DNA of 64,000 nt from Paludibacteraceae bacterium (GTDB lineage: Bacteria > Bacteroidota > Bacteroidia > Bacteroidales > Paludibacteraceae), in the NCBI GenBank assembly GCA_017446455.1, contig JAFSQV010000014.1, forward strand, positions 4,688 through 68,687, given 5' to 3'. The notes beneath the pieces are model-generated. The model ran no database searches and had not been told where the DNA came from. It saw only the letters and a list, made by a program, of their open reading frames with translations. The stretch's first letter is position 1. Each line of letters opens with the position of its first letter. Both the position numbers and the translations under genes were made by a program. Shown here in pieces: positions 7,048 to 55,178 of the stretch.

Positions 7048-7762
7048 TGTTGGTGTCGTTTATCAGTTGTTGACATTTATCTGCAACTGCGTGAGTTGTT
7101 TCTAATGTTTCTTTTGTCTGCTTTGCAGCAGCTTTTCCTTGTGCCTGCGCGTCCGCGACGTGCGCTCGCGTGTATTCCTTATATATATTGATCAGCAAGC
7201 GCCCGTCCTCGGTCATCCAAAAAGGTGACGGCTGGACACCATACGATAAGCAAAGAAGCTGCTGTGTCAGTTTGGAAAGCGATGTGGTCCGTCCGTTATA
7301 AGACACACGTTTATTATCAATAACCGTACAAGTGATGGACGTGTCTTTTTTGAAACGGAGCACGGTGCCAACCGGCAACCCCATAGCAAGGAAGTCCATG
7401 TTCGGTGCTTTTTTACGTTTTGCCTCCTCATCATTGATTTCTTTTTGCACAGCAGTAGTCATGGGCTCAAACTTTCCAATACCTCTCATTAGTTTATCCA
7501 CCGTTTCTGGTGTTACACGAAAAAACTCAGAATTGCCCACACGCTTATCGGAGTAATTATCGTGCAAGATTGCCTCAATGTTCGACAATTCTTCATCTGG
7601 GACTTTATATGCGTATGCACACATGAACGGCTCCGGGACAGCAGTTCCGAGTTCGCGGATTCGATGCCGAATGTCAGTCCTGTGCGTCATTCCGATTTTC
7701 ACCATCCCATTAAAATAGGGATTAGTGAGCACATAAATCAGTCCGTAGTCTTTGCTTTCCAT
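7040..7762 (-). CDS. T5orf172 / GIY-YIG superfamily domain protein with an uncharacterised C-terminal domain
   Basis: The N-terminus GLIYVLTNPYFNGMVKIGMTHRTDIRHRIRELGTAVPEPF...SEFFRV fits the T5orf172 (MUG113) pattern. The C-terminal ~120 aa are not recognisable. Confidence 0.65.
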   Translation of the reverse strand: MESKDYGLIYVLTNPYFNGMVKIGMTHRTDIRHRIRELGTAVPEPFMCAYAYKVPDEELSNIEAILHDNYSDKRVGNSEFFRVTPETVDKLMRGIGKFEPMTTAVQKEINDEEAKRKKAPNMDFLAMGLPVGTVLRFKKDTSITCTVIDNKRVSYNGRTTSLSKLTQQLLCLSYGVQPSPFWMTEDGRLLINIYKEYTRAHVADAQAQGKAAAKQTKETLETTHAVADKCQQLINDTNNG

Positions 7763-9553: not shown

Positions 9554-9918
9554 TGAGCACCACCAACCCACTCGAGCAATTAGCCGGCACGCGCAGCGTG
9601 ATCATGATTGACGCTGCCACGCTCCTGGAGTACCTGCACCAAGACCGTGAGGAGACCTACATGGAAGGCATCCGCGAGGGTCGCCGTCTGGCAGAGGCAG
9701 CAGCATTGGCAACGACAGCAGAGCCGCTGACGAAGAAGCAGGCCGCAAAGGCACTCGGATTCTCCGAGGGCACGATTGACAACATGCGACGCCGGGGCGA
9801 GCTGGAGAGCTACGAGTACGGTGGGCAGGTACGGATAGAACGCGCCGAGGTGGAGCGATGGAAACGCACCCACACCGGTCTGTATGCAAAAAGCAAACGT
9901 CTAACCTATAAAAAATGA
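9553..9918 (+). CDS. MerR/excisionase-type HTH protein (candidate Xis or early regulator)
   Basis: LTKKQAAKALGFSEGTIDNMRRRGELESYEYGGQVRIERAEVERWKR fits the HTH_17 pattern. Confidence 0.6.
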   Translation: MSTTNPLEQLAGTRSVIMIDAATLLEYLHQDREETYMEGIREGRRLAEAAALATTAEPLTKKQAAKALGFSEGTIDNMRRRGELESYEYGGQVRIERAEVERWKRTHTGLYAKSKRLTYKK

Positions 9919-28693: not shown

Positions 28694-31419
28694 CGCATAG
28701 ATTAAATGTTCAATACGAAACATCCGAAATTACAACTCCGGAGGAATATTTCGTAGTGCCTATTTGCAGCTACGCGACTCCAGGCGGAGGAACAGAGTAC
28801 ATTGCGGAAGGCGGACTACCTACTTCCATATTTCCGGAAACTGGCGAAAGCTTGCATGGCTCAGGCGGGATCACGATTCCGAGCGGAAAGACAGCCAGGA
28901 TAGTTATTCCTGTGTCCGGAGTGGTCGTGATGACAACGTACCCACAGCTCGAGAGCTTCACGGTGGAGACAACAAGCGGAACGAAAACCGTGTCTGGAGT
29001 TCCGAATGCTACACTGGCGCTGCTCAACGATGCGCCAAGCAGGACGGTAGAGGTTTCTGGAGGAAACACTATCTGGATCATTTGCAAAGCTGCAGGTGTG
29101 ATTGAAAACCTAAGCGTGGAGATCATATCTCCGCACGAATATGCAGTTATCAACGAGCCTGTGGGGTTCGACGATCTGCAGATGACGATGAAGCGCAATG
29201 ACTACCATGGCATGGGAGCGGAGGTGTCGCTTGGAACGCTGGAGTTCTATGGGCTTGCATACGACTTGATTAAATCTTCCTACGACGACGATATCGACAA
29301 CGAGGTCATTTACTCAGTACTCGACGCGAGCAACAACACTCTCTTTCGTGGTGTCCTCGACCTTTCCACATGCAGTTTTTCTCGCGCGGACTACCAGAGC
29401 GTAAAAGTGAAGGTCGGCGAAGTTGGCCCGAAGACCATCTTCAACAACCGTACAGACAAGGAAATCGACATGGACGATCCGAAGACCATCGACGGCAGCG
29501 CCGTTACAAGTCCAACCTGGAAATCGCTTCACATCCCGATGAAGCACCTGCTGTACACGATCCTCTCGAAGCGCGATGTGGACTCGGAAGAGATATATCA
29601 AAGCGCAGGAGATGGGCAAACCAGCGGATCAAACTATATTTATTTTTACACATGGAAGAATACTTTTAGTGGGAATCCAGCTCCTAACGCTCTCTTCTTG
29701 CCGTTAGGAGAGAACCCGTCCGTAGAGTTCGGAACATTCGCAGAGCAGACACCGCCTTATACAACAAGCGGAGTGATTAACAGCGCTGTGGATGATATAA
29801 GAGTCGTCAATCCGCAATACTACGCAAATGCGGATCACGAAACGAAGTATGGATCAAATACAGAAGCCAATGTTAGAGCGCATCTCGAGTTAGAGATACG
29901 CCACTGGAGATGCTTCTATCAACTTGTCGCAGGAGGAGGCTACGACAGACAATCCGCTAAGTACTCCTACTATGTGAGACTCGTCGGGTACTACGAAAAA
30001 GACGGAAATCATTTTATAAATGGCAATCAGGTATACATATCTGCCGGTGACGGCGAACCTGCAAGGCAGACTATCACTTTAGACTTAGAGAACCAAATAC
30101 CAGCTGATGTTTCATTAAGGTACTATTTGGAGTTCACTCCTGGTTATGTGTATAGGGGCACAAGCGGGGATTATCAGGATGTCCTGCCGCAACAGATAGA
30201 AGCGTGGATCAAAATAAAAGCAGGATCGTATTTCAAAATGACGATGTACGACAACCTGCCCGAAACGAACGTCAACGCGGATATGCTCCTGGTGCATGAT
30301 GCGCTCAACGTGGTGTCGCACGCCATCAGCGAGAACGTGCTGCCTGTCAAGAGCGACTGGTATCGCACGCCGGACAGCCAATGGGAGTCCGGAACGCTCG
30401 GTGGAGGCGCACTCAAAGCAATAACGAACGGGTACAAGATACGTGGCCTTTTTACTGATGGAGTGCTGAAACGAAACATGCCTATGTCCTTTAAGGCGCT
30501 CATCGAGAGCCTTTCGGCATTGGATAACATCGGATGGGGATTCTCCACGGAGAGCGGAACTACCTGCGTGCGCGTTGAGCGCTGGGACTGGTTCTACAAA
30601 GACACCGTAGTCCTGACGCTTGATCACGTGGCAGAGATTACAAAGGATGTGTACATAGACCGCATCCCGACAGAACTCAAGATCGGATATAAGAAATACG
30701 CAACGCAAGAGCAGTACAACTCCATCGAAAGTCCGCACGGTACACGAAACTACATAAATGGCATCAAGGCCGTTAGTAAGGAAATTACAAAGGAGTGTGA
30801 GTTCATCGCGGACAACTACGCCATCGAAGAGACAAGACGCGCCAGAACGCAAAAGAACGCAACGGAAGAAACCACCTACGATGAGAGCATCTTTATCTTT
30901 GAGCTCATCCGGAAAGGACCGTCCTCCGGAACGCGTGTGTACTCCATCGGTCACACGGCTGTGGACGCTGAGAATGTGGGCCGTGCAGAGGAATTTATCA
31001 ACGCGAAGCTAACCCCGTACAACATGGCCAAGCGCTGGCGTGACTACCTTTTTGCTGCGAACAACACAACACCACTCAAGTTTACGACCGGCGAGATTAA
31101 CTACAAGGCAGCGTTTGGAGTGATTCCGGAAACAGACACGGTGAGTGGCGTGGTCACAGATTCACTGCTCCCGTTCGGAGGGACGAGCAAACAAGCTGAG
31201 AACCTGGATGTTGAATACCAGCAGGCGAAGTTCAAAGCAGAGAAACTCACGTTCTCCTACCCGCTGACAATCGCGCAGTACAACGCCATCAAGGCAAACC
31301 CATACGGCCTCGTCCAACTGACGGAAGGCAATACCACCATCGCCCAGGGCTGGATTCTGGACTTCAAATACAAGTTCGAGGACGGCATGGCTGATTTCAC
31401 ACTCATTGCTAAACGATAA
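28684..31419 (+). CDS. tail tip / distal tail-baseplate protein (putative, 911 aa)
   Basis: It overlaps the TMP stop. Size and position fit a Dit/Tal-type protein. No motif recognised. Confidence 0.45.
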   Translation: MELTHRLNVQYETSEITTPEEYFVVPICSYATPGGGTEYIAEGGLPTSIFPETGESLHGSGGITIPSGKTARIVIPVSGVVVMTTYPQLESFTVETTSGTKTVSGVPNATLALLNDAPSRTVEVSGGNTIWIICKAAGVIENLSVEIISPHEYAVINEPVGFDDLQMTMKRNDYHGMGAEVSLGTLEFYGLAYDLIKSSYDDDIDNEVIYSVLDASNNTLFRGVLDLSTCSFSRADYQSVKVKVGEVGPKTIFNNRTDKEIDMDDPKTIDGSAVTSPTWKSLHIPMKHLLYTILSKRDVDSEEIYQSAGDGQTSGSNYIYFYTWKNTFSGNPAPNALFLPLGENPSVEFGTFAEQTPPYTTSGVINSAVDDIRVVNPQYYANADHETKYGSNTEANVRAHLELEIRHWRCFYQLVAGGGYDRQSAKYSYYVRLVGYYEKDGNHFINGNQVYISAGDGEPARQTITLDLENQIPADVSLRYYLEFTPGYVYRGTSGDYQDVLPQQIEAWIKIKAGSYFKMTMYDNLPETNVNADMLLVHDALNVVSHAISENVLPVKSDWYRTPDSQWESGTLGGGALKAITNGYKIRGLFTDGVLKRNMPMSFKALIESLSALDNIGWGFSTESGTTCVRVERWDWFYKDTVVLTLDHVAEITKDVYIDRIPTELKIGYKKYATQEQYNSIESPHGTRNYINGIKAVSKEITKECEFIADNYAIEETRRARTQKNATEETTYDESIFIFELIRKGPSSGTRVYSIGHTAVDAENVGRAEEFINAKLTPYNMAKRWRDYLFAANNTTPLKFTTGEINYKAAFGVIPETDTVSGVVTDSLLPFGGTSKQAENLDVEYQQAKFKAEKLTFSYPLTIAQYNAIKANPYGLVQLTEGNTTIAQGWILDFKYKFEDGMADFTLIAKR

Positions 31420-31424
31420 GAAAA

Positions 31425-32201
31425 ATGCTGGAAAACCAATTTATAAAATGCGCGAGTTCGACTCCGAGCACATGGGGCGCAGCTCCGGTGTTCGTGATCG
31501 TAGGGAGTGCCAGGACCTTGACGCTCAACCACATTAATCTCTTTGTGCCTGGAGACGTGACAAAACTCACCTATTTGCTATCCGGAGTAGTAAACACGTA
31601 TACCGTAGATGTTGCATCGTCCACAAACGACTATAAGATAGTCGGCATCCGAGACGATCTGTGGCATATATGGGACTGGTTTCTCGGAGGCCAGGCGAAA
31701 GTCGTGGTGCAAGCGAAACGCGGAGACGGAACGTACCTCTATAGCAATCCCATCATCCTCTTAAACGAGGCAGTTGATAAGGATAGCGAGAGATTTGCTT
31801 TTGTCAAGTACAGATGCGACGAGGATGCGCTCGGGTTTCCGTTCAGTCAAGAGCCGACAAAGTACGTCAGTATAGATCTCCCCATTCGTTTGCATTCGCC
31901 GCAACTCGTCCAGGATGAGAAAACATACGTGAAAGCAAACGGCGAGGTGGTGACGCTTTATGCTAAGTACTACAAAGAGTGGGATGGAGAGACGGAGTAT
32001 CTGTCAGCCGAAATGCACGATAAGATAGTGGCCGCGCTGTCGTGCGACGAGGTGTATATCAACGGCAAGCGCGTGACCAAATCCGAAAAATACGAAATCG
32101 CCTGGGACGCATACGACCTGGACTGCGACGGAGAAACAAAACTGGCTATGGCAACATTTAAGGTGCGCGAGCACATCACACAACGAAATTCAAATTATTA
32201 A
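31425..32201 (+). CDS. tail-associated protein (258 aa)
   Basis: Call rests on position after the tail tip gene. Confidence 0.4.
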   Translation: MLENQFIKCASSTPSTWGAAPVFVIVGSARTLTLNHINLFVPGDVTKLTYLLSGVVNTYTVDVASSTNDYKIVGIRDDLWHIWDWFLGGQAKVVVQAKRGDGTYLYSNPIILLNEAVDKDSERFAFVKYRCDEDALGFPFSQEPTKYVSIDLPIRLHSPQLVQDEKTYVKANGEVVTLYAKYYKEWDGETEYLSAEMHDKIVAALSCDEVYINGKRVTKSEKYEIAWDAYDLDCDGETKLAMATFKVREHITQRNSNY

Positions 32202-32206
32202 GAACT

Positions 32207-34030
32207 ATGCCTATTAACATTTCTGATGTAGCAGCAGTAGCGTCTGCTTTGTCTGGTCGCTATTCCAATAGAGCGGAGTGCGTCGAGCTCGCACGCAAAC
32301 TGCGCGTACACGCCAATGGCGAGCTACCAGGCCATCTGCTGACTGATCGCCGACCCAACGAGCCGGAGGAAATCAAGAAGTACCGAGAGAAAATCTACGT
32401 ACCGAAAACCAAGCAGGCTGTTTCCAAGGTTATCAACTCCCTGGAGAAGATTCGTCGTGCGCAGGACTGGTACATCAAGTACGACAACGAGGCTATTCCC
32501 AAGGTGGTGGCCGAGCAGGAGACGCTGGAGCGTTACTGCGAAGAGAACTACCCTGGCTTCACGAGCATTACCAACTGGGCGTTTTCGGAGCTGCTCAAGC
32601 AGTCGCTGATTGACGCTAACGGCGTGGTGGCTGTTGTGGTGGATGAGACGCCGGCCAACAAAGGTCAGTACTGCAAGCCCGTTGCAAAATTCTTCAACTG
32701 CGACCAGATCGTGGAGTACCGCGATGGCGATTATATCGTGCTCCGCAGCAACGACAAGGTGGAGTACCCGGTCAAGAGCCGCGACGGCATGAAGATCGTG
32801 CGCACAGAGAAAGGCGGTAACGTGATGTACTTACTCACTAAAAACGAATGTATCCGCTACGAGCAGAACGGCACCAATAACTACAAGAACGCCATCACAT
32901 ACACGCACAACATTGGCCAACTTCCAGCATGGAAAGTGGGCGGTTTGTACCATTCGCGCGTAAACAACGACACGATCTACGAGAGCCGTCTGGCTGGCAT
33001 GGTTCCGGACCTGGATGAGGCGGCACGCGAGTACAGCGACCTGCAGGCGGAGATCGTGATGCATATCCATTCGGAACGCTACGCGTACACGAACACCGAG
33101 TGTCCGGACTGCAAAGGTCTTGGGCACGTAACAGGCGAAGACGGCAAGACGACCAGATGTCAGAGATGCGGCGGTACCGGGCATATCCTCAACTCTACAC
33201 CATATGGCACGATCCTGGTGGACTCAGCACGTGCTGGCGAAAATCAACTCCCAACTCCACCGATCGGTTATATCCAGAAGCAGACGGATATCGCCAAGTT
33301 GCAGGACGAGCGCATCCGCAACCATATCAAGGATGCGCTGGCGGCCGTGAACATGGAGTTCCTGGCCGAGACACCGATTGACCAGTCCGGAGTGGCCAAG
33401 GCCTACGACGCTAACGAACTGAATAACTTTGTGAACTCCGTGGCCGAGGACCTGGTGCGCAATATCGACAACGTGTACAAGTTCATCAACGAGTACCGTT
33501 ACCGGACGATCGTGCCGGACGAGGAGAAGCGCCGTGCGATGCTGCCGTCTGTCAACGTGCCGACGAAATTCGATATCGCAAACACGACCATCCTCATGCA
33601 GGAGCTCCAGGGAGCACGCCAAGCGGAAGCCAACCCGGAGACAATGCGCGTGCTGGAGACCAACTACGCAAAGATGCAGTTTAATACGGAACCGGAGGTG
33701 GCAGAGCGCCTGCAGACCATCTTTGACATGGATCCGCTGTTTGGCGTCAAAGAGGAAAACAAAATGACGATGCTGCAAAACAACGGCATCACCGAGACGG
33801 CCTACATCATTTCCTGCAACATCCACGCGTTTGTGCGCCAGGCTATCTACGAGCACAAGGACTTCTGTGAGTGGACCTACGACAAGAAAAAGGAACTTCT
33901 GGAGCAGTACGCCGAGGAGGTACGCAAGGACGCAGAGAAGCGTGCGGAGAAAAACGCCCAGCAATGGCTGGATTTCGGCGGCCTTGGCGACGATAAACCC
34001 AAACCGGGTGAACCCATCCAAAGAGCCTAA
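32207..34030 (+). CDS. portal protein (putative) with an inserted CxxCxGxG zinc-finger pair
   Basis: 607 aa, directly upstream of the MuF (SPP1 gp7-like) gene as in SPP1-type head modules. It contains CPDCKGLGH...CQRCGGTGH (33101-33184). Confidence 0.5.
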   Translation: MPINISDVAAVASALSGRYSNRAECVELARKLRVHANGELPGHLLTDRRPNEPEEIKKYREKIYVPKTKQAVSKVINSLEKIRRAQDWYIKYDNEAIPKVVAEQETLERYCEENYPGFTSITNWAFSELLKQSLIDANGVVAVVVDETPANKGQYCKPVAKFFNCDQIVEYRDGDYIVLRSNDKVEYPVKSRDGMKIVRTEKGGNVMYLLTKNECIRYEQNGTNNYKNAITYTHNIGQLPAWKVGGLYHSRVNNDTIYESRLAGMVPDLDEAAREYSDLQAEIVMHIHSERYAYTNTECPDCKGLGHVTGEDGKTTRCQRCGGTGHILNSTPYGTILVDSARAGENQLPTPPIGYIQKQTDIAKLQDERIRNHIKDALAAVNMEFLAETPIDQSGVAKAYDANELNNFVNSVAEDLVRNIDNVYKFINEYRYRTIVPDEEKRRAMLPSVNVPTKFDIANTTILMQELQGARQAEANPETMRVLETNYAKMQFNTEPEVAERLQTIFDMDPLFGVKEENKMTMLQNNGITETAYIISCNIHAFVRQAIYEHKDFCEWTYDKKKELLEQYAEEVRKDAEKRAEKNAQQWLDFGGLGDDKPKPGEPIQRA

Positions 34031-34103
34031 GAAAGACGAACCTACGCAAGAATAGTAACGCGACCATCACGGGACCATCTCCCAAGAACAAGCCAATAAC
34101 ACC

Positions 34104-36245
34104 ATGACCGAACTAAAGGATGTCATAGAGACGCTGGATCAAGCGGCCGATTCGTTTGACGGCATCGCCACCAAGGAGCAGAAGAAAATCTACGACGAGG
34201 TGGTGGTGCTTGCCAAGGACCTGGAAACAGATGTCCATGGCAAAGTCAAGCAGTCCATCGCCAACCTCAAACGGCTGACTCAGATTAAAGCCAAGCTCGC
34301 TGCCCTCTCCAAAGATAAGGAGTGGGTGGCGGGCATTACGCGTTTCGCGCAGTACTTCGGGCACCTACAGAAGATGCAGAACGAGTACTACTCGCAGCAT
34401 TTCACGGAGAGCACACTTGGCATGAATGCGCAAAAGAAAAACCAACTGATGCGCGAGATGGCAGTGCAGAACACCATGGAAGCGCTGATGGGCGACGGAT
34501 TGAAAGCCAACGTGACTGACAAACTCAACGACATCCTGCTGCGGGCGGTTACGTCCGGGGCCAAGTTTGCGGACCTGCAGGACGAGCTGCGCGCACACCT
34601 CATGGGCGAGAATGGCGGCAAGGGAGCCTTTGCACGCTATGCCACCACATACGCCACGACGGCGCTTTCGCAGTTTGCCGGCCAGACCAACAAACTCATG
34701 ACGGACGACCTCGGCCTGGAGTGGTTTATGTACACCGGAAGCAACAAGGAAACAACGCGCGAGTTTTGCGAGCACCTAACCAAGAAGAAGTACATCCACA
34801 AGTCAGAGATACCGACGATCCTCACGGGCAAGATTGACGACTACCAATGCGCCATCTACGAGAAGACAGGTCTGCCATTGGGCATGATCGCCGGCACCAC
34901 GCCGGAGAACTTCCAATGCAACTGCGGCGGTTGGAACTGCCGTCACCAACTCGTGCCGGTGCATGAATCCGCTGTGCCTGCAAACATCCGTGCAAAGTTC
35001 AAGCAGATACGGCCTACAATTGAAAAGCCTATAGGCCAGCAGCCGATTGACCTTTCGCAGTACAGAGAGCAAATCAGCAATATTGAAAAGTATATCGCTG
35101 AACATCCGAAGTCCGCAAAAATAAAAGGATATCTGGATGGTGTAAAGCAACTTGCTAAAGAAGGTAACGAAGACTTATTGAAGTCTGTATTAAAAGCAGC
35201 AAATGCGGATATTAGAAAGTTTGAGGCTTCTGCAAATGTGAAGACCAAAAAGAATGCTGCTATAGAAGAAAGCCATAAAGAATGGACACAATGGACTTCT
35301 CAAAACGAAGCATGGCTCAGTGTAACGAAGTCTAATGCCTCAAAAGCCGGTATTGAAATCGAAGAATTATTAGATAAAACAAAGTCCGCGAAGGAACTCG
35401 ACAAATTAAAGACTACTATCGGAGAGGCAATAAAACAAAGGCAAAATGAATTTGACGATGCCGTTTCGAAGGCATCCGATATCGTTTACGAACTTATACA
35501 AGAAGGAGAATCGGATATCGCCATCGACTTTGAAGATAAGATTCAAAAGTTTAATTGGGATGGAATTAAGAATGATGCAATGCGTCAAAAGCAACTTGCA
35601 GAACTTAATGATATTATTGTCCGTGGAAAAGAAACACTTAAAAAGGTCCGCGAGCCGTTATATAAAAATGTTGTCAAAAGACTCAAAGCAAGAAATATTG
35701 CGTATCACAAAATTAACACTAATGAAAGCGCAATCTCAGAAGAAGAAATTATTAAGAAGGTAGGAATAAACGATCCTGTCGGGTATTGTTCATCACTTGC
35801 TTTTGCCTATGCGGCAAACAAAGCTGGCCTTGATGTTGTGGATTCGCGCGGAGGAAAGAGTGCAGAATTCTTTAGTACCGATGCTCAAATAATGGAAATA
35901 GCACGATCTCTTGGAGGCGAGCAATTGTTCTCAAAGAATGAAGTGGCTGATGCTTATGCAGTACTTGCTAAAGTTCAAGAAGGGCATGAGTATTATTTTG
36001 GATGCGCAAGGCACGCTGCTATCGTTCGCAAAAAAGGTGGCGAATTAGAGTTCCTTGATTTGCAGGAGTTCTATAAAGATGGAAACGGATGGAGAATACT
36101 ATCTCTTAATGAATTAAGAAGAAGGTTTGACGCAAGAAACATCAATCAATTTGCAACCGCAACAGTCCTTGTAGATTTAAACAACATGCGTAATTCACTC
36201 GCGTTTAAGGATATGGTTGGATATATCCATAACCCTAAAAAGTAA
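34104..36245 (+). CDS. MuF / SPP1 gp7-family head morphogenesis protein with a long C-terminal extension ending in a Cys/His domain
   Basis: MuF core ...TREFCEHLTKKKYIHKSEIP...NCGGWNCRHQLVPV (aa ~190-290), then coiled coil. The C-terminal ~180 aa read ...VGYCSSLAFAYAANKAG...GCARHAAIVRKKGGELEFLD. GC content drops from about 35,000 onward. Confidence 0.7.
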   Translation: MTELKDVIETLDQAADSFDGIATKEQKKIYDEVVVLAKDLETDVHGKVKQSIANLKRLTQIKAKLAALSKDKEWVAGITRFAQYFGHLQKMQNEYYSQHFTESTLGMNAQKKNQLMREMAVQNTMEALMGDGLKANVTDKLNDILLRAVTSGAKFADLQDELRAHLMGENGGKGAFARYATTYATTALSQFAGQTNKLMTDDLGLEWFMYTGSNKETTREFCEHLTKKKYIHKSEIPTILTGKIDDYQCAIYEKTGLPLGMIAGTTPENFQCNCGGWNCRHQLVPVHESAVPANIRAKFKQIRPTIEKPIGQQPIDLSQYREQISNIEKYIAEHPKSAKIKGYLDGVKQLAKEGNEDLLKSVLKAANADIRKFEASANVKTKKNAAIEESHKEWTQWTSQNEAWLSVTKSNASKAGIEIEELLDKTKSAKELDKLKTTIGEAIKQRQNEFDDAVSKASDIVYELIQEGESDIAIDFEDKIQKFNWDGIKNDAMRQKQLAELNDIIVRGKETLKKVREPLYKNVVKRLKARNIAYHKINTNESAISEEEIIKKVGINDPVGYCSSLAFAYAANKAGLDVVDSRGGKSAEFFSTDAQIMEIARSLGGEQLFSKNEVADAYAVLAKVQEGHEYYFGCARHAAIVRKKGGELEFLDLQEFYKDGNGWRILSLNELRRRFDARNINQFATATVLVDLNNMRNSLAFKDMVGYIHNPKK

Positions 36246-36250
36246 CTTTA

Positions 36251-36460
36251 TCAACGAGCACGATACGGAAACTCGCTATCAAAAATTGCACGTTCTCCAG
36301 GAGTGAGATTGTTTGGGTAGTCCTTAAGATAACTAAAGATTTTAATTTTGTCAAAAGAGAACAAGAAATCACCCGTCTTGAGATTCGGGATAGTTGCTAC
36401 GTTCCAGATGACATTAGATTCATCTTCTTTAAAAAACTCATATATAACATCGTTTTCCAT
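36251..36460 (-). CDS. hypothetical 69-aa protein, opposite-strand moron (immunity candidate)
   Basis: It is the only minus-strand ORF inside the late region. It has its own TACCTTTG box (36483-36490) and AGGAG before the ATG, and lies in an AT-rich segment. Confidence 0.5.
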   Translation of the reverse strand: MENDVIYEFFKEDESNVIWNVATIPNLKTGDFLFSFDKIKIFSYLKDYPNNLTPGERAIFDSEFPYRAR

Positions 36461-36482
36461 AAGGAGATAGTTATTCTGGTCG

Positions 36483-36490
36483 CAAAGGTA
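36483..36490 (-). promoter_or_regulatory. promoter -7 box (TACCTTTG) for the moron
   Basis: Minus strand reads GCGTACCTTTGCGACC, 23 nt upstream of ATG 36460. Confidence 0.5.
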
Positions 36491-36625
36491 CGCTTTTTAT
36501 TTGACACGTGCAAGTTTTTTGGCAAAAAAGTGCTGAAAAAAGTGTAATTTTCATCATTTCGACAAAAAATTCACTTTTTAATTATTTATTTCATTATTTT
36601 ATTTGCAGATACAAAAAATTATTAC

Positions 36626-36633
36626 TATCTTTG
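36626..36633 (+). promoter_or_regulatory. promoter -7 box (TATCTTTG) restarting rightward transcription
   Basis: ATTACTATCTTTGCAACCG with ATTTGCAGA upstream, 27 nt before ATG 36660. Confidence 0.5.
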
Positions 36634-36659
36634 CAACCGAATTTAAAAACACCAATATT

Positions 36660-37007
36660 ATGGCAACATACATCTTCGATAAACCGTTTCTTGATAAAGC
36701 CATCGCCGGAGTCCGTGCACTTAAGCTTGCCGAACTGAAAGCTCGCAAGGAAATAAGCTGGTGGCTTGATAGCCGGCACAAGAGTGCTGTTGTTGCTGAA
36801 TACCGCCAACTCGGTGGACGTGGTGCAGGCATCGCAATTGATCTGGACGTAATGACTGAGGACGGATATTCGGATAAGAAGAACATCGGATTGTCAACAT
36901 CTGGGACAGGTCAGTCAACTGCCAACTCCGAGGAGAGGGCGTTTGATAGCGTGAAGCAATCCGCACTCCGTAGATTGGAAGTATTGAAATCAAGGGGAAT
37001 CATATAA
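36660..37007 (+). CDS. hypothetical protein (115 aa)
   Basis: Start chosen at ATG 36660 (MATYIFDK), downstream of the promoter. Confidence 0.5.
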   Translation: MATYIFDKPFLDKAIAGVRALKLAELKARKEISWWLDSRHKSAVVAEYRQLGGRGAGIAIDLDVMTEDGYSDKKNIGLSTSGTGQSTANSEERAFDSVKQSALRRLEVLKSRGII

Positions 37008-37084
37008 ACAACTCGAGCGCCATCGTCTCGTATGTGTCTCGTAAGCGTCTCGTAAATATGTCGTAACATAAAAAAATTACAATC

Positions 37085-37504
37085 ATGACTCAAAAGTACA
37101 TCAAAGTAACGCCGAAAGGCGAGAAAGAGGGACGAGTAGTGCTCGCATCCCTTAAGAGCTTCTTCGTTAGTCAAGGCGCGAAGATTGAAACTCCCACTCC
37201 GGAAGAGATTGCTGCTGAGTTTCCGGAAGAGCGCAAGGTCAGCGCAACGTCGGCGCAACCGCAGCAGAGCCAGCAGGCTGTAAACGCAGTCATTGCCGAG
37301 CAGAAGGTAACCATCGAGAAGCAGGCCGAGACGATCAAGGCCCTCGAAGAGGAGCTGAAGACCGTCAAGGAGGAGCGCGAAAAAGCCTACGAGCAGGTAG
37401 CGGCTCTCGGTAAGTCCCTCGAGGAATCCGAGCAGTTGATTGCCAAACTGCGTGCTGACGCAGACAAAGGCGCAAAAACCTCCGGCAAGGAGAAAGGCGA
37501 ATAA
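37085..37504 (+). CDS. scaffolding-like coiled-coil protein (139 aa)
   Basis: E/K/A/Q-rich helix (EKQAETIKALEEELKTVKEEREKAYEQVAALGKSLEESEQLIAKLRADADK). It lies upstream of the capsid gene. Confidence 0.5.
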   Translation: MTQKYIKVTPKGEKEGRVVLASLKSFFVSQGAKIETPTPEEIAAEFPEERKVSATSAQPQQSQQAVNAVIAEQKVTIEKQAETIKALEEELKTVKEEREKAYEQVAALGKSLEESEQLIAKLRADADKGAKTSGKEKGE

Positions 37505-37528
37505 CACAAACTCTAAAACACAAATCAT

Positions 37529-38416
37529 ATGACTTTAGGAGATTTTCTCAACAACCTGGCGGCCAAAACCGGCCTGCAAAATGATCAAGCCTTTATTGAT
37601 TTGCTGTCCTCTTCCGAGCTCTCTCAACACGAGATCAGCGACGAACTGGCACAACGCATCGACGGAGGCCTTATGTCGCTCGATGGAGCGAAAAACAACC
37701 GTGACGTACTGAACCACTACAAGCCTATCGTGCTCAAGGCTATCGACGACAAGTTTGCCGTCCTGGCCGAGAAATACGGTATCGCGGACAAGATTGCTGC
37801 CGAGAAATCCTCGTACAACAAGCTTGACATCCTCGAGCAGGCGCTGGCCGCCAAGCTGGCCGACGCGGAGGCGAGAGTGCAAAGTGCAGGCGGGCAGAAG
37901 AGTGAAGAAGTGACACGGCTGACCAAGCAGATCAGCGACTTGCAGGGACAACTACAGACACTGACTGCATCCAAGGAGGCAGAGTTGAAATCGCTGCGCG
38001 ATCAATACTCGAAGAGCCAACTGGACATGCTCATCAACTTCGATCTCAAGGGACGGAACTATGCCAATGCGGAACTTGGCGACACCAACGTGGATATTGC
38101 TCACGCTATCATCTCCAAGGCGCTGCAGGAGCAGAAAGCCGTCATCGTGAACGACAACGGAGTGCTCAAACTCAAGCAGGCCGACAACCTCGACCTGGAC
38201 TTCCTTGACGGTCAGTACAAGCCGGTATCGTTCAGCGACTTTGTATCCCGCACGCTTGCGGACAAGCATCTGCTGGCTGTGCAAGGAAATGGCGACGATG
38301 ATCACAGGACACCTCCTGCTCCCCCTGCACCGACAATTCCGACCGGACAGGACAACAGGAACACCAGACAGTTTGAAGCAGCCTTAGCTGCCTCAATGGC
38401 TGACGACGAAAATTAA
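37529..38416 (+). CDS. scaffolding / head-associated protein (295 aa)
   Basis: Central coiled coil, a Pro-rich C-terminus, and position directly before the major capsid gene. Confidence 0.5.
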   Translation: MTLGDFLNNLAAKTGLQNDQAFIDLLSSSELSQHEISDELAQRIDGGLMSLDGAKNNRDVLNHYKPIVLKAIDDKFAVLAEKYGIADKIAAEKSSYNKLDILEQALAAKLADAEARVQSAGGQKSEEVTRLTKQISDLQGQLQTLTASKEAELKSLRDQYSKSQLDMLINFDLKGRNYANAELGDTNVDIAHAIISKALQEQKAVIVNDNGVLKLKQADNLDLDFLDGQYKPVSFSDFVSRTLADKHLLAVQGNGDDDHRTPPAPPAPTIPTGQDNRNTRQFEAALAASMADDEN

Positions 38417-38434
38417 TCAAAAACATCAACTACT

Positions 38435-39589
38435 ATGCCAATTACAGGTACTGGCTTTGCGCAAGCCCTCAAAAAAAACATCGGCCTTATTGCTAAGGAG
38501 AATGATCCTCAGTTGAAAGTCACTCCGACCGGCTTCCTCAAGTTGCTGCTTGAGAACAACGCCCTGGTTGAGATTAACAACATCGAGGAGCTCCGCAAGG
38601 GCCAGAAGCGCACCATCAAACTGCGTTATTTGCAACGCGGTTCCGAAAGCGAGGTAACGGACGTTGACAACTGCGACACCAACACGGTGGACGGTTGGAA
38701 AGAGAGTGAAATCCCGACACCTCAGTTCTCCAAGATCGGCATCTTCATTCCGGACGACGAGTTCCGTCAGTACGAGGAAGAGGCTATCCAGACGCTCGCA
38801 TTGGGCGACGGCCAGCAGGCTCCGCTGATGCGTGGTTTCTACGAGATTCTGCTCACCAAGCTCATCGGCTTGATCAGCAAGATTGACACCAACCTCATCG
38901 CTGCACAAGCGCTCAAATGGGGCGAGAATGCGGCATACAGCCCGCGTACCGGCGCTAAAGTTATCGAGCTGGGTAAGACCGCCGATTTCAATAGCGGTTA
39001 CGTCAAGCTGCAAGAAGATGCGCTCATCAACGAGCTGAACGGCGACCTGCTGCTTTGCGGCAACGGTCTGATAACCCGCTACGACATGTACCACCGACTG
39101 AAAGCAGGTAACGATGCTAACGGTATCGGCGCTCTGCCTCTCAACGCGTACTACGATCCGCGCACCAAGGCCGGATGGGGTACTGACCACTTCGGAGTGT
39201 TCGCAAAAGGCACCATCGGCTTCGTCGATTGGAATAAGAACGTAGGTCCTTATGCAGGTGAGAAAGGCGGTCACAACTTCTTCACGCTTCCTATCCCTGT
39301 AGAGCTCGCAAACGGCACGCTGTCTGCGCTTGTGCTTGACGCACAGATGTTCTACGGAGCATGTCCGGAGTACGATGGCGATGGCGTGCTGACGAAAGAT
39401 CGCGGATGGAACATCATCCTCTCGAAGCACTACGGCCTGTTCAACTTGCCGGACAACGCATTTGCATCGAGCGACATCCTCTATAAGGTCAACGGCTCGC
39501 TGCACTACGTGGCACAGGAGAAAGCGGAGGTAACTACCGTAGAACCGACTGCATCGGCGGTATTCAAAACGCAGGAGCAGACTGAGTAA
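38435..39589 (+). CDS. major capsid protein (putative)
   Basis: 384 aa, preceded by a strong RBS-free short spacer, in the canonical position after the scaffold genes. Its GC and codon use are typical of highly expressed late genes. Confidence 0.6.
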   Translation: MPITGTGFAQALKKNIGLIAKENDPQLKVTPTGFLKLLLENNALVEINNIEELRKGQKRTIKLRYLQRGSESEVTDVDNCDTNTVDGWKESEIPTPQFSKIGIFIPDDEFRQYEEEAIQTLALGDGQQAPLMRGFYEILLTKLIGLISKIDTNLIAAQALKWGENAAYSPRTGAKVIELGKTADFNSGYVKLQEDALINELNGDLLLCGNGLITRYDMYHRLKAGNDANGIGALPLNAYYDPRTKAGWGTDHFGVFAKGTIGFVDWNKNVGPYAGEKGGHNFFTLPIPVELANGTLSALVLDAQMFYGACPEYDGDGVLTKDRGWNIILSKHYGLFNLPDNAFASSDILYKVNGSLHYVAQEKAEVTTVEPTASAVFKTQEQTE

Positions 39590-39600
39590 CCGGAACGATT

Positions 39601-40119
39601 ATGCTTGACGAACTGAAAGGATATATCGGATTAAGAAGCAACGGCGACACAGAGGCACCAAGTGGCCTCTATGTCGACGCGCTTCCCGATATCAACCTGA
39701 CTATCATTGAGCGTATCACGACGAATGAGGAAGACAGCTGCGAAACATGGTCCCGCATTGAAAAGCGAGCGTTGTTGAAATTCCGGACGCTATTCATCCG
39801 GGAAGTCAACAAATGCCATAAGATCAACGCTATCGATAAATGCGAATGCCTCATTGTTAATAACAAGGAAGTTCTTGCAACAGCCTTGTGGTATATCATG
39901 GGCGCTGAGGTGATGATCACCCGCAAAGAATCGAGCCGGATCAATGCGGCGACCATAGATCGCGGAAAAAACGACGAGCTCCGGGCGTATTTCGAGGACC
40001 AGTTCCAGAAAGAGCTCGAGGTGGCCGTCAATAGCATAGACGTTCACAACTCTACTTGCTTTCCGGACGAGCAGCCAAAGCCAAATGCAATAGTGACCAT
40101 TGAAACTCCTATCCTCTAA
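39601..40119 (+). CDS. head-tail connector / head completion protein (putative)
   Basis: 172 aa. Call rests on position after the capsid gene. Confidence 0.4.
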   Translation: MLDELKGYIGLRSNGDTEAPSGLYVDALPDINLTIIERITTNEEDSCETWSRIEKRALLKFRTLFIREVNKCHKINAIDKCECLIVNNKEVLATALWYIMGAEVMITRKESSRINAATIDRGKNDELRAYFEDQFQKELEVAVNSIDVHNSTCFPDEQPKPNAIVTIETPIL

Positions 40120-40556
40120 TGGAACTCACGACCAACATGCCAGTGGTGCTCAATACCGTCAATATGAAGTTGTCGGCATTGGATATCAAACGCATGACGA
40201 ACATACAAGCGACTACGCTGATGGCAGTCATGCGCGACCGCATCCATGTACAAGGACGAGATTCCAACGGAGCGCCGATTGGTGTATATACACCAAAGTA
40301 CATCAAGTACTCGCGTAAGAAAGCCGGCCGTGGAACTGACAGCAAGGTTATCTTATCGCTGACAAGACAGATGGAAAATGGGTATATCTTGGTAGAGTTA
40401 CCAAACGGCACCGGTATCGGATTCTCGACGCACGAGGACTTCCAAAAGGCCGGATGGTGTGAGGAGACTTACAAAAAGCCTATCTTCAAGCCGACAGCCG
40501 AGGAAACGGCAATGGTCAACCAAATAGCAGAAGAATACATTGCTAAACACCTATAA
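40119..40556 (+). CDS. head-tail joining (HK97 gp10-like / virion morphogenesis) protein (putative)
   Basis: 145 aa. MAVMRDRIHVQGRDSNGAPIGVYTPKY...SLTRQMENG resembles this family. ATGA-type overlap with the upstream gene. Confidence 0.45.
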   Translation: MELTTNMPVVLNTVNMKLSALDIKRMTNIQATTLMAVMRDRIHVQGRDSNGAPIGVYTPKYIKYSRKKAGRGTDSKVILSLTRQMENGYILVELPNGTGIGFSTHEDFQKAGWCEETYKKPIFKPTAEETAMVNQIAEEYIAKHL

Positions 40557-40558
40557 GT

Positions 40559-41080
40559 ATGCACAGCGTCATTCGTTCAATCAATGAGGTGCTTAATGGC
40601 ATTTTTAAGCCAGGGGCTAAGGTTCATTTTTATGGACTGGCAGAATCTGTCGCTGCTCGCGATTCGAAAGGAGAAAAGGTTGTGCCGGCGATAGTACTCC
40701 CAGACGGCGAGTGCTTCGACGTATATGGACTGGCCGACATGAAGAACGCTACTTTCTATCATCGTCTGCAGAGTTCGCAGTTTGGATCGGTGCAGTCTTT
40801 TGGTAGCACAAAGGACTACGAGAAGACAAGCGATGTATCGCTTATTGTTTTTGGTAAGCGCCAAGTGTACGATCAGTTCGTGCTGGCAGACACCGTCTGC
40901 GCGGCTCTTGGAAAAATGAAGAATGTGACGCTGCAGGGAGTTGATTACAACCTGCTGCAGGTGTTTGCAACGGAGTACAGCGGCCTGTCCTGCTTCCTTA
41001 ATCCGGATTACTTCTTATTTAGAATCAATTATCGTATAACCAGCACCCTTAATAGGTGCACAAATATTGAAAAACTATGA
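40559..41080 (+). CDS. neck / tail completion protein (putative)
   Basis: 173 aa, in the connector block. Confidence 0.4.
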   Translation: MHSVIRSINEVLNGIFKPGAKVHFYGLAESVAARDSKGEKVVPAIVLPDGECFDVYGLADMKNATFYHRLQSSQFGSVQSFGSTKDYEKTSDVSLIVFGKRQVYDQFVLADTVCAALGKMKNVTLQGVDYNLLQVFATEYSGLSCFLNPDYFLFRINYRITSTLNRCTNIEKL

Positions 41081-41661
41081 GTTTACAACGAATCACATGT
41101 GATGGTGCCTCTGGCACTCCGCTGGTTCATACCTGCGACCCTTGCGAGCGAGAGCTTGGTCGTGTCCGTGGTGCGTGCCTTGTAGATGGGTCGTTTGATT
41201 TTACGGCTCTTATTGCTGCATTGAAAGGTTCTGATCCATCTGCAGCCCAGAACCTCTTTGAACAAGCGATTGAAGATGGAGATATACACCTCATCTCAGA
41301 GACTACCGGTACCTACGATGGCGGTTCTCCTCAGACAGGAGATGGCTACGGGGACGAAGAAACACGTCTGCTCGGTTATCTGCACACGCTGAACTTCAAG
41401 GACCCGTCGTATGCCGGCAACAAAGACTTCTACGAGCAAGCAGAGAAGGAGCACTGGAAACTAATCTGGCGAACAGAGACATTGTTGCACTTCGTCAACA
41501 AGCCTGCAGGTATCCAAGCGATCGCTCCTGTAGAGACGGACCTGACATCTGCTGTCGTATGGGACGTAACGGCTACCTGGAAGTCCAAGGAGAAGCCGGA
41601 AATAGCTCCACTTGCACACCTTGCAAAGTATTTCGAAGGATGCTGGGAAACCACTCCTTAA
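41077..41661 (+). CDS. structural protein, possible major tail/tube protein
   Basis: 194 aa. It is the last gene of the connector block and overlaps the upstream stop. Confidence 0.35.
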   Translation: MSLQRITCDGASGTPLVHTCDPCERELGRVRGACLVDGSFDFTALIAALKGSDPSAAQNLFEQAIEDGDIHLISETTGTYDGGSPQTGDGYGDEETRLLGYLHTLNFKDPSYAGNKDFYEQAEKEHWKLIWRTETLLHFVNKPAGIQAIAPVETDLTSAVVWDVTATWKSKEKPEIAPLAHLAKYFEGCWETTP

Positions 41662-41719
41662 GAGCTATCTAATGGCATAGGCGGCTGACTACTGCCTATG
41701 CTAACTAATTTTAACAAGT

Positions 41720-42670
41720 ATGGAAACGCTAAAAATTGTAAAGGGCCAGCCGTTTGTGTTGTGGATTCCAACTATCATGCTCAACGCCGATGGCGAGCAG
41801 GAGATAGATGCCAGCACGCTCACAGATGTCGTTGTGACAGCGAGCAGCGGGTGTGATAAATATACCATCGACCACCACGCGCACGAGCACTGGCTCGTGC
41901 TGGAATTTGACGACAGCCTGAAAATAGGCCCGTACAGAATAACTATCACAGGGTTCCTTGAAGGAGGGCGCAAGTTTTGTCTTGCGCTTGCTAAACCGCT
42001 CGAGATCGTCAACTGGGACAGCGAAAGCAACTGGGACCGCTTCATCGTAGGCGACCATATCGAACTGACGGATCATCCGTTCATAACGGGTGAGTTTCTC
42101 ACAGATGCGGAGTTTGAAGCCTTGAAAGAAGAGTACCGCGAGAAGAACGCGCAACTCGACCAGGCGATCGCAGATGCCGAAGCGGCAAAGGAACACTATG
42201 ACGAACTCGCCGAGCAGTTGAGCGGAGTGGCGCAGGAAGCGACATCGCATGAGATACTAACCAAAACGGAAGCGGCGAAAGATGCAGCAGTAGAAGCAAA
42301 AACCGCAGCGCAGGCAGCAGAAACGACGACACAAGGCACGGCAAACAAGAACGAGATACTTGCGGCTATTGCAGCAAACGCCGGAATTCCTACTTTGACC
42401 ATACCAAACACAACGGCAGCGCAGGAACTTGCACCGAATGTGTTGTATATCTTTTCATCCCGCACAAACGAACTGACCCTCACAATAGGCGCGCCTATTG
42501 TGGGTATAGCCAACGAGTATCACTTTTTTGTCGTATGTGGTGCGACCGCACCGACAATCAATTTCCCTGCTGGTATCACATGGAACGGCGGCAGCGCACC
42601 GACTATTGCAGCCGACAAGACCTACGAGGTATCTATATTGAATAATGTTGCAGCATATTTTGAGGTATGA
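41720..42670 (+). CDS. fibre/whisker-like structural protein (316 aa)
   Basis: N-terminal beta-rich domain, an Ala/Glu-rich coiled coil (AIADAEAAKEHYDELAEQL...AAKDAAVEAKTAAQAAE) and a C-terminal beta domain. Confidence 0.4.
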   Translation: METLKIVKGQPFVLWIPTIMLNADGEQEIDASTLTDVVVTASSGCDKYTIDHHAHEHWLVLEFDDSLKIGPYRITITGFLEGGRKFCLALAKPLEIVNWDSESNWDRFIVGDHIELTDHPFITGEFLTDAEFEALKEEYREKNAQLDQAIADAEAAKEHYDELAEQLSGVAQEATSHEILTKTEAAKDAAVEAKTAAQAAETTTQGTANKNEILAAIAANAGIPTLTIPNTTAAQELAPNVLYIFSSRTNELTLTIGAPIVGIANEYHFFVVCGATAPTINFPAGITWNGGSAPTIAADKTYEVSILNNVAAYFEV

Positions 42671-54030: not shown

Positions 54031-55178
54031 CGCTGTTGTGCCTTTAAACTAAAGAGGACCGTAAAGCGTACGCCGACCGTGAGATTACGCACCCAGAGTT
54101 GATTGCCGTTAGCGACATCCGTCGTGAAGACGTGATTCATCTTGAAGGTATGGAAATCATACAGTCCGCGTTGTTGTGCCTCTATCTTTGCCGGATCGGT
54201 CTCAGCTTCGTTGATGTTGAGATCGTATAGTTTATTGGTCCCGTTGGGGCTGATGTTGGGCAGACTGATGTCGATAAAGGCCGCGATACGCATGCGGCAG
54301 TCTAAGTTATCGGACTTGCTGGTGCGGTATTGCTGAATCACCTCATAGGTGTTGAACTCATATCCACCTTCGAGGTGACCGATAATATCGAGATTCTCGA
54401 CACCGGTTTTACCCAAGCGAATCGGCAGTTTACCTCCGTCGGCAGAGAGCGGTACATCTTTGCGGAAGCCATGATTATCCATTTCCTCAAAAACACCCAT
54501 ATAATCGTCGAAGACTGCACGCGAGGTACAGGTGGCATTGATGCGTGTCTTTCCGCCGAAGGCGTAGTTGACTTGCGCGCCGAGCATCACATAACCCACA
54601 CCGCCTTGACCGGAGATATAATAACCGAAGTTGATAGGCAGTTGAGCGTAATAGAGTTCCGCCATGTCGCTGCGTTCGCCGAAGACATGCTTCATGTTAA
54701 ACGGCATACCGTCGTAGGGGTCGGTCATCGGATAGCGTTTTCCGATATCCGGATTGGAGAATCCATTGAGGAATGTGGACGCACTCGCTGGAATACTTTC
54801 TGCCTTAAGCGGTGTGGTCACATGCTGAATACCCACGCCGACACCGGTCTGCAAGAAGAAGTTCTTGACGTGGTACTCGTATAGGAACTTGCCGTTAGCG
54901 GCCCATCCGCCCGGCGTACTTTGAACTCCTTGAATATTAGACAGGAACGTACTCCAACCTCCATCTACGGAGAAACCGAGGTAGTGGCCCGATCCGGTAT
55001 ATGTGGTGGAATGCAGGCCAAGCGAGTTCCGGGTCTTATTCGCATCCCTAGCGGAGAAGCCTTTCACTTTCGAGAGGTTTCTCTCCGCCTTGGAGGATGT
55101 GGAATAGCGGTTCTGCCCCCATGTCGCAATAGAGGCGAGGCAGAGGCTTAGAACGATGATTTGTCGCAGTTTGGACAT
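54000..55178 (-). CDS. outer-membrane beta-barrel protein (putative)
   Basis: Signal peptide MSKLRQIIVLSLCLASIATWGQ and alternating aromatic/Gly-rich strands (GYVMLGAQVNYAFGG). It lies immediately downstream of the giant T9SS cargo gene. Confidence 0.5.
   Translation of the reverse strand: MSKLRQIIVLSLCLASIATWGQNRYSTSSKAERNLSKVKGFSARDANKTRNSLGLHSTTYTGSGHYLGFSVDGGWSTFLSNIQGVQSTPGGWAANGKFLYEYHVKNFFLQTGVGVGIQHVTTPLKAESIPASASTFLNGFSNPDIGKRYPMTDPYDGMPFNMKHVFGERSDMAELYYAQLPINFGYYISGQGGVGYVMLGAQVNYAFGGKTRINATCTSRAVFDDYMGVFEEMDNHGFRKDVPLSADGGKLPIRLGKTGVENLDIIGHLEGGYEFNTYEVIQQYRTSKSDNLDCRMRIAAFIDISLPNISPNGTNKLYDLNINEAETDPAKIEAQQRGLYDFHTFKMNHVFTTDVANGNQLWVRNLTVGVRFTVLFSLKAQQRCILCDPWRH

Follow-up and report, generated by a model that had tools for sequence, protein, structure and literature searches.

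What does a phage head protein do with a long C-terminal extension, and why does a small gene face it from the opposite strand? This question is raised by a stretch of 64,000 nucleotides (nt; hereafter, the window) from contig JAFSQV010000014.1 of the Paludibacteraceae bacterium assembly GCA_017446455.1 (positions 4,688 to 68,687 of the forward strand). In the window, a plus-strand open reading frame (ORF) at 34104-36245 encodes a protein of 713 amino acids (aa), and a 69-aa ORF with an ATG start occupies 36251-36460 on the minus strand. The two genes stand tail-to-tail, with their stops 5 nt apart. An earlier note on this DNA, made from the letters alone, had described a MuF head protein with a swapped-in C-terminal Cys/His domain next to an inverted small gene, as a possible toxin and immunity pair. 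Our analysis indicates that the long protein probably belongs to the MuF polymorphic toxins and bears a new tip related to Tox-PL1, and that the small gene, a member of the Pfam family DUF7675, probably encodes the cognate immunity protein.

A constant MuF core with exchangeable C-termini

The first 300 aa of the long protein (34104-35003, plus strand) make up a constant head-morphogenesis core that ends just past NCGGWNCRHQLVPV (aa 273-286), a reading supported by Pfam, structure prediction and homologues. The Pfam profile Phage_Mu_F (PF04233) matched aa 140-274 over its whole length, below threshold (E = 0.008, 17 bits vs. a gathering cut-off of 29.6), and a full-length match to this profile recurred in eight of ten relatives. 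An AlphaFold2 (AF2) model of aa 1-330, based on 87 sequences, reached a predicted local distance difference test score (pLDDT) of 86.4 and gave 66 BFVD matches at E ≤ 1e-3, the named ones being mostly minor capsid, head or capsid morphogenesis proteins. Directly 5' of the gene lies that for the portal protein (32207-34030, plus strand; phrog_7376, E = 4.9e-17), an order that is also kept in the loci of the relatives. The N-terminal part is thus a MuF domain in its canonical place, and the recurrent Pfam match, the AF2 model with its BFVD matches and the position after the portal gene confirm the earlier reading of the ORF as a MuF core with an extended C-terminus.

To describe the polymorphism of the C-termini we used the 120 closest homologues, which range from 443 to 1094 aa in length and are 44–97% identical in the core, and clustered their last 170 aa. 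A total of 12 C-terminal families were obtained. The largest contains 29 proteins, several of which match the ADP-ribosyltransferase (ART) family PF03496; it is followed by CdiA_C-like tips (n = 23), tips with the papain-fold domain of the window protein (n = 15) and tips of the PF15644 Gln_amidase/Tox-PL1 type (n = 8), and the representatives of the other families that were scanned had no Pfam match. None of the 120 is a short MuF protein without an extension. BLAST end points of protein homology clustered at query aa 296-310, close to the breakpoint at aa 300-320 that had been suspected from the letters, with a second class at aa 370-393.

At the DNA level, blastn similarity to 12 related loci ended at 34957-35003 (two reached 35134 and 35227) and restarted at 37498-37538, which places a variable cassette region at 34960-37500 between the conserved MuF core and conserved head genes. 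The GC content in 300-nt windows was 0.52-0.58 up to ~34950 (a span that takes in the portal gene and ~850 nt at the start of the 713-aa ORF) and 0.31-0.43 between ~35000 and ~36750, and was back up by ~36900. The edges of the cassette coincide at the DNA level, at the protein level and in GC content. The fall in GC content that the earlier note had placed at ~35,000-36,650 is therefore real, but its interpretation as the mark of a recently exchanged cassette is unsupported: the core has a GC content of 0.52-0.58 and the tip one of 0.36-0.45 in every relative, so that a low GC content is a standing property of the cassette and does not by itself point to a recent swap. The most similar other copy of the C-terminal domain is only ~44-47% identical. 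A recent transfer from Firmicutes was considered as the cause and rejected, since all tips of the phage group share the low GC content and the identity of the window domain to Firmicutes copies (31-40%) does not exceed that to copies from Bacteroidales (37-47%).

At least four proteins of 713 aa that are nearly identical to that of the window occur in other assemblies, and the arrangement is therefore stable. The related loci were drawn from assemblies of Segatella copri, Bacteroidaceae and Paludibacteraceae, and from a few bins under other taxon names that we suspect to be mis-binned phage contigs.

Core and tip are joined by a linker of low GC content (aa ~301-509; 35004-35630, plus strand), within which the second class of breakpoints falls. 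It is rich in Lys and Glu and probably helical, judging from its sequence, and a helix predicted at aa 511-529 leads into the C-terminal domain.

The papain-fold tip and its DUF7675 partner

The C-terminal domain was modelled as aa 510-713 (35631-36245, plus strand), with a globular part at ~537-707, and falls in phrog_7104 (function unknown; E = 1e-20). No Pfam family was detected in any of 120 members of the domain family, and NCBIfam returned nothing meaningful. The Tox-PL1 profile PF15644 gave no match at E ≤ 1 for the window protein and none at E ≤ 0.01 in the 120 members, and phmmer and profile searches with the domain against PDB sequences yielded chance matches only (E ≥ 0.75). A single-sequence search with the domain (word index) found 3 proteins and a profile search 131, many of the latter being 170-380 aa long without a detectable MuF part.

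The AF2 model of aa 510-713 on an alignment of 120 homologues had a pLDDT of 91.5 and a predicted template modelling score of 0.89. A Cys stands at the start of a helix, a His at the start of a strand and an acid-x-Gln motif at the end of the next strand, which, as modelled, is the papain arrangement. The candidate catalytic residues are C562 (35787-35789), H637 (36012-36014), D652 (36057-36059) and Q654 (36063-36065), all on the plus strand. They are conserved in 118 of 119 aligned sequences (C562), 120 of 120 (H637), 118 of 120 (Glu or Asp at 652) and 120 of 120 (Q654), and the Cys/His motif first picked out by eye is thus near-invariant. Further invariant positions are the motif D580-x-R582-G-G584-x-S586, Y630 and R674-F675.

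Comparison of the model with known structures using Foldseek pointed in the same direction. The leading PDB matches were nearly all papain-like, i.e., the protease region of lymphostatin, the C39 peptidases ComA/PCAT1, Josephin, phytochelatin synthase, MINDY and a herpesvirus USP. In BFVD, a member of the same family (E = 5e-18) was followed by a "Papain fold toxin 1, glutamine deamidase" (E = 3e-4, probability 1.0) and thereafter by actinophage "capsid maturation protease and MuF-like fusion" proteins (E = 1-2e-3). When the domain was aligned using hhalign to the PF15644-type tails of the same MuF group, the Cys, the His and [DE]xQ were brought into register (E = 2e-4). The fold search that the earlier note had recommended thus gave a papain-like fold with a Cys/His/acid-x-Gln set. 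Given the predicted fold and the conserved residues, we conclude that the domain is putatively active as an enzyme and represents a new family close to Tox-PL1, and its activity is probably that of a peptidase or deamidase on a cytoplasmic target.

The 69-aa protein matched PF24723 with E = 8.7e-17 and 61.2 bits (cut-off 27) over profile positions 1-57 of 65, and also falls in phrog_6473; we propose it as the immunity protein or inhibitor of the tip. DUF7675 is the only Pfam family that the protein matched, and no mention of the family was found in the literature. An exhaustive HMMER search among 1.8 billion representatives returned 170 DUF7675 clusters (50% identity) at E ≤ 1e-3. Their members are mostly 60-150 aa long, some being tandem duplications and some fused to other domains, with one fusion partner that reads as a GNAT-like region. 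The protein of the window has no signal peptide by eye. In a close relative the DUF7675 gene was called 25 codons longer; this extension merely translates the promoter region, and the ATG at 36460 is therefore the likely start. The gene had been described as the only one on the minus strand of the late region. Every non-nested ORF of at least 150 aa at ~22000-45000 lies on the plus strand, consistent with the 69-aa gene being the sole minus-strand gene there.

The conservation of this small gene, which the earlier note had made a condition of its proposal, was evident in that the tip and DUF7675 were adjacent in every locus inspected, in two phyla and in non-phage loci. In Bacteroidales, DUF7675 follows the tip directly on the minus strand in five of five loci, i.e., the window and the related loci L012, L013, L014 and L015, whose tips are 37-47% identical to that of the window; in L014 the gene is present and uncalled. 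Searches of GenBank phages using tblastn detected 17 records for the domain and 17 for DUF7675. Four of these phages were inspected (Javan215, Javan242, Butyrivibrio phage Ceridwen and pneumophage IPP67), and in each the portal, MuF with the domain and DUF7675 are encoded in this order, with the DUF7675 gene co-directional and overlapping the end of the toxin gene by ~10 nt (the small gene of IPP67 matched DUF7675 with E = 7e-31). The coordinates of the domain and DUF7675 matches adjoin in five further records, and one phage has two genes, one for MuF (335 aa) and one for the domain (204 aa), with DUF7675 after them. At a locus that adjoins an FtsK/SpoIIIE (EssC-like) gene, a 324-aa protein combines an N-terminal part without a Pfam match and the domain; behind it, and overlapping it, lies a DUF7675 ORF that had not been called. 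One homologue of the domain has a weakly WXG100-like N-terminus (E = 1e-4). The other tips of the group are adjoined by other small genes. The pair is thus kept while its arrangement shifts between overlapping co-directional and convergent, which argues for an interaction at the protein level. The pairwise identities of the domain and DUF7675 were also correlated over 12 pairs (Mantel r = 0.53, p = 0.0008).

DUF7675 was also found in two other settings. A chromosome of Anaerovoracaceae (GCA_036644855.1, L022:4781-9161) carries three tandem orphan cassettes. A 75-aa zincin-like fragment, identical in all three, and the last ~70 aa of a MuF core (..PPFHPRCRTTT..), which they also share, precede a tip that differs from cassette to cassette: the papain-fold domain with DUF7675 in one, a tip containing an HExxH motif in another, and a tip with a 95-aa ORF behind it in the remaining one. 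The array is reminiscent of the way in which contact-dependent inhibition (CDI) and Rhs systems carry displaced toxin tips, here for MuF toxins. In Streptococcus, eight satellite elements resembling phage-inducible chromosomal islands (PICI-like) carry DUF7675, and none of the eight was matched by tblastn with the papain-fold domain. The DUF7675 protein of the satellite Javan201 (L017:8079-8291) is 94% identical (66/70) to that of Javan215 (L001:5596-5808), which bears the MuF toxin; both are from S. equinus. The satellite copy looks like an orphan immunity gene against the toxin of a likely helper. DUF7675 occurs in orphan, tandem and fused copies, a pattern that is also seen in immunity proteins.

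Promoters of Bacteroidetes have a -33/-7 layout of TTTG and TAnnTTTG. A promoter of this type lies in front of the DUF7675 gene (36483-36514, minus strand), with CTTG at 36514-36511, a 20-nt spacer and, 22 nt upstream of the ATG, TACCTTTG at 36490-36483. The whole window contains 44 copies of TAnnTTTG vs. 29.8 expected, a number reached in 1 of 100 shuffles, and a scan of 35600-37200 for sigma-70 promoters and terminators was uninformative. A TAnnTTTG box is located 16-31 nt 5' of the ATG in all five Bacteroidales DUF7675 genes, and CTTGCAxG ~20 nt upstream of the box is common to three of the five. Judged by this conservation, the TACCTTTG box is not a chance motif, and the promoter that had been assigned to the gene from the window alone is kept in its relatives. 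With a promoter of its own on the opposite strand, DUF7675 could therefore be made independently of the late operon, e.g., in the lysogen.

The same element, CTTGCAxG-N20-TACCTTTGC, was detected 28-31 nt before the starts of the minus-strand genes behind other tips, in L004, L006 and L008. Overall, a convergent partner gene with its own promoter motif was present in all eight loci checked in the Bacteroidales group. Every other tip examined in the phage group also has one or more minus-strand genes behind it. The ART-family tip of L004 is followed by an ADP-ribosylglycohydrolase gene (E = 4e-30) and then a 107-aa ORF (region L004:3917-5238), and the tips of L006 and L008 are followed by ORFs of 90 aa (region L006:3253-3597) and 79 aa (region L008:7992-8384), respectively, all on the minus strand.

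Proposed role of the pair and competing explanations

In the proposed mechanism, the MuF core (aa 1-300) would bring the protein inside the capsid, as the comparison with SPP1 gp7 and phage Mu F suggests, and the protein would probably enter the cell together with the DNA; packaging into capsids and delivery have been proposed for MuF toxins before (PMC5576092 and PMC5512222). The linker would lead to the exchangeable tip, a predicted papain-fold cysteine hydrolase with the candidate active site C562-H637-D652-x-Q654, which would act in the cytoplasm. DUF7675 would most likely be a stoichiometric inhibitor that binds the domain, as its strict co-occurrence suggests, and its expression in the lysogen from its own promoter would protect lysogens from the toxin.

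Several observations weigh against a toxin and immunity pair of this kind, or against its activity in the window. The Foldseek matches in PDB are weak (best E = 2e-3, template modelling scores of 0.3-0.4), and so is the link to Tox-PL1 at the sequence level (46% probability in hhalign and no Pfam match in the 120 members). Asp at position 652 is found in the window alone, 117 of the 120 members having Glu, and the conserved QxKGxxGxxK tail, which comes after ..GYINT in most members, is absent from the window domain (ending in ...GYIHNPKK). The DUF7675 protein of the window stops short of a conserved C-terminal W..FF segment found in most copies. The window pair could thus be atypical or weakened in activity. 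Furthermore, the conservation of DUF7675 is higher than is usual for immunity proteins, the Mantel correlation is expected for any two linked genes, and the link to type VII secretion is weak, consisting of one FtsK_SpoIIIE neighbour and one WXG100 match. The missing tail (alignment columns 232-246; window 36225-36245) is likewise missing in two other members, P0003 and P0006; it may serve in processing or as a signal for targeting.

A more far-reaching version of the toxin and immunity reading seems doubtful to us as a whole. It holds that in this Bacteroidales phage group the immunity genes of all tips stand on the opposite strand under a conserved, autonomous promoter of the Bacteroidetes type, so that the antidote would be made continuously and the toxin on induction. 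The MuF toxin would then be a kin-discrimination device, with virions or lysate hitting non-lysogens or cells with a different cassette and sparing sibling lysogens. The tip would represent a new enzymatic class, e.g., a C-H-Q deamidase with a novel target in the cytoplasm, and the orphan DUF7675 genes of satellites such as those of S. equinus would confer resistance to the toxin of the helper.

Among the explanations that compete with the toxin and immunity pair, the one that survives best is a host-takeover or anti-defence effector. The domain would be injected with the DNA and cleave or modify host defence or regulatory proteins, and DUF7675 would keep it inactive in the producer. In work on polyvalent proteins, MuF fusions are presented as early effectors that are delivered along with the DNA (PMC5512222), the DUF7675 gene of Firmicutes phages is translationally coupled in the late operon and hence expressed alongside the enzyme, and the predicted fold and active site fit a protein-modifying enzyme. 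We nevertheless consider this explanation unlikely, given that the pair also occurs outside phages (beside the EssC-like gene and in the chromosomal orphan-cassette array) and that satellites carry orphan DUF7675 genes, all of which is typical of toxin and immunity systems. The independent promoter in Bacteroidales also suggests a protection of lysogens, beyond that of the producing cells only.

The domain might also be a morphogenetic or self-processing protease that cleaves MuF or other head proteins without being toxic, with DUF7675 as an assembly partner or timing inhibitor. Papain-like peptidases have been listed as releasing proteases of MuF systems (PMC3482391), the actinophage fusion proteins among the fold matches (E = 1-2e-3) are named as capsid maturation proteases, and phrog_595, which matches the N-terminal part, is labelled as a head maturation protease. 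However, the domain is dispensable, as orthologous cores (44-97% identity) bear 11 other, unrelated tips, and it leaves no cargo to be released, because it is the sole domain after the linker. Its presence in non-phage loci, together with its interchangeability with bona fide toxin tips, argues against both a morphogenetic function and one at the cell wall, and we rate a morphogenetic protease as distinctly improbable.

Still less credible is an effector directed at the animal host, i.e., a deamidase or deubiquitinase-like enzyme that would be freed on lysis and act on eukaryotic ubiquitin-like or other proteins. There is a precedent in the ART tip of Bxa: this Bacteroidales toxin of the MuF family acts on proteins of epithelial cells, which it modifies, and aids colonisation of the gut (PMC11699363). 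The fold matches of the tip include lymphostatin and the deubiquitinases Josephin, MINDY and USP, although all of these matches are weak. Cif-type deamidases have a Cys-His-Gln triad, which the C-H-x-Q signature of the tip resembles. On the other hand, a cytoplasmic partner without a signal peptide argues for a target in the bacterial cytoplasm, and many phages of Firmicutes, among them one of Butyrivibrio from the rumen, carry the domain, which also lies beside the EssC-like gene. Least probable of all is a virion-borne NlpC/P60- or CHAP-type cell-wall hydrolase that aids DNA entry, since, despite the papain-like fold and Cys-His order that such enzymes share and the existence of internal head proteins with wall-degrading domains (e.g., T7 gp16), no NlpC/P60, CHAP or amidase family was detected by Pfam in the 120 members or among the fold matches, and a cytoplasmic inhibitor would be needless.

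The toxin and immunity pair thus remains our preferred explanation, and it provides a concrete, testable role for both Pfam DUF7675 and phrog_7104. The domain occurs in gut and rumen phages of Bacteroidales and Firmicutes, in prophages of Streptococcus pneumoniae, S. gordonii and S. equi, next to the EssC-like gene and in the chromosomal array. The convergent, promoter-bearing design suggests how the expression of immunity may be timed, and this bears on the purpose of MuF toxins.

Surroundings of the cassette and comparison with known systems

Beyond the DUF7675 gene, the cassette contains a further plus-strand gene (ORF 36660-37007, 115 aa), which has its own TATCTTTG box at 36626-36633, 27 nt upstream. 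The gene and the DUF7675 promoter point away from each other, with an AT-rich spacer between them. The earlier note had included this ORF in its proposed toxicity assay; it is absent from all related loci and thus not a member of the conserved module, and it had no match in Pfam, PADLOC or the phage databases. It is thus an orphan cargo gene outside the conserved pair. Searches for defence systems with PADLOC matched neither the toxin nor DUF7675. An Ntox47 match obtained with a longer version of the ORF (36603-37007, E = 0.044) was rejected, as it was not reproduced with the start at 36660. In L012 (L012:6602-9444), a full-length relative with 51% identity, other cargo lies between the toxin and immunity pair and the head genes, i.e., a 103-aa ORF, an N6/N4 DNA methyltransferase and a protein that contains the N-terminal domain of S-AdoMet synthetase. 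Given this extra cargo at the same site, the site looks like a general cargo hotspot.

The window as a whole holds an integrated temperate phage of gut Bacteroidales, with a tyrosine integrase containing a Phage_int_SAM_5 domain at 5528-6838 and host genes flanking the element; those on the right encode exonuclease VII, ComEC and a 2191-aa IgGFc-binding protein. No match to GenBank phages was found for 30000-42000 using megablast. A weak tblastn match of the toxin domain at 58004-58336, within the ORF of the host IgGFc_binding protein (55148-61723, minus strand; E = 7e-39), was dismissed as chance because neither the Cys region nor the His aligns. Near the integrase are genes for a T5orf172/MUG113-domain protein (7040-7762, minus strand) and a 664-aa SMC/RecF-like AAA ATPase (AAA_23, AAA_15; 9915-11909, plus strand), which may be accessory or defence-type genes of the early region of the prophage. 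The portal protein has a four-cysteine, zinc-ribbon-like insert at aa ~293-330 (CPDCKG...CQRCGG) with weak matches to Anti-TRAP, DnaJ_CXXCXGXG and zinc-knuckle families.

Polymorphic toxins with MuF domains are established (PMC3482391, PMC5576092), including the Bxa/Apk2 type of Bacteroidales (PMC11699363, PMC10083569, PMC12226406). The concept is thus not new, and the earlier note was right to place the locus in a known class; with Bacteroidales examples already published (PMC11699363), the locus is less novel than was supposed. New here are the unnamed Tox-PL1-like tip, DUF7675 as its partner, the spread of the pair over two phyla and several delivery contexts, and the convergent design with a promoter for the partner gene.

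The nearest known counterparts are the Bxa/Apk2-type toxins, which share with the window protein a MuF N-terminus encoded among the head genes of a Bacteroidales temperate phage, an exchangeable tip and small immunity genes after it. The toxin and immunity locus Bxa/BAH of a Bacteroides stercoris prophage has been validated experimentally, and homologues of the Bxa N-terminus across Bacteroidales are reported to bear ART, glutamine deamidase or alarmone synthetase tips with small ORFs behind each of them (PMC11699363). The ART-family tip and ADP-ribosylglycohydrolase of L004 are genes of the kinds found in Bxa/BAH, and other relatives of the window protein bear a glutamine-deamidase tip, as Bxa homologues do. 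The window tip differs in being neither an ART, a Gln_amidase (PF15644) nor an alarmone synthetase, and in having DUF7675 as its partner; neither its family nor DUF7675 is mentioned in PMC11699363, PMC10083569 or PMC12226406. The homologues of the window protein widen the catalogue of Bxa/Apk2-type tips to at least 12 families in 120 proteins, most of them without a Pfam match.

With respect to the tip itself, the nearest described family is Tox-PL1, which is defined by NC-H-DxQ and is fused to MuF and WXG (type VII secretion) domains (Zhang et al. 2012, PMC3482391). The two have in common the papain-like fold predicted here, the order of the candidate catalytic residues, the DxQ motif (DLQ in the window, mostly ELQ in its family) and the position at the toxin's very C-terminal end. 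They differ in the residue before the Cys, which is Ser or Tyr in the window family instead of Asn, and in the invariant D-x-R-G-G-x-S, Y630 and R674-F675 that the window family adds. The partner of Tox-PL1 is Imm35, whereas DUF7675 is the one Pfam family that the neighbour of the window tip matched.

In the study of Firmicutes temperate phages by Jamet et al. 2017 (PMC5576092), 89% of the MuF toxins have a small ORF behind them. The papain-fold domain and DUF7675 after the portal gene in Streptococcus and Butyrivibrio phages conform to this pattern, and under that scheme such extensions would count as an "unknown domain" (PMC5576092). In Firmicutes the small gene is co-directional with an overlap of ~10 nt, whereas in Bacteroidales it is convergent and has its own promoter. 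Finally, the window protein is like the prototypes SPP1 gp7 and phage Mu gpF in its fold and in its place after the portal gene, whereas these prototypes are short and have no toxin tip.

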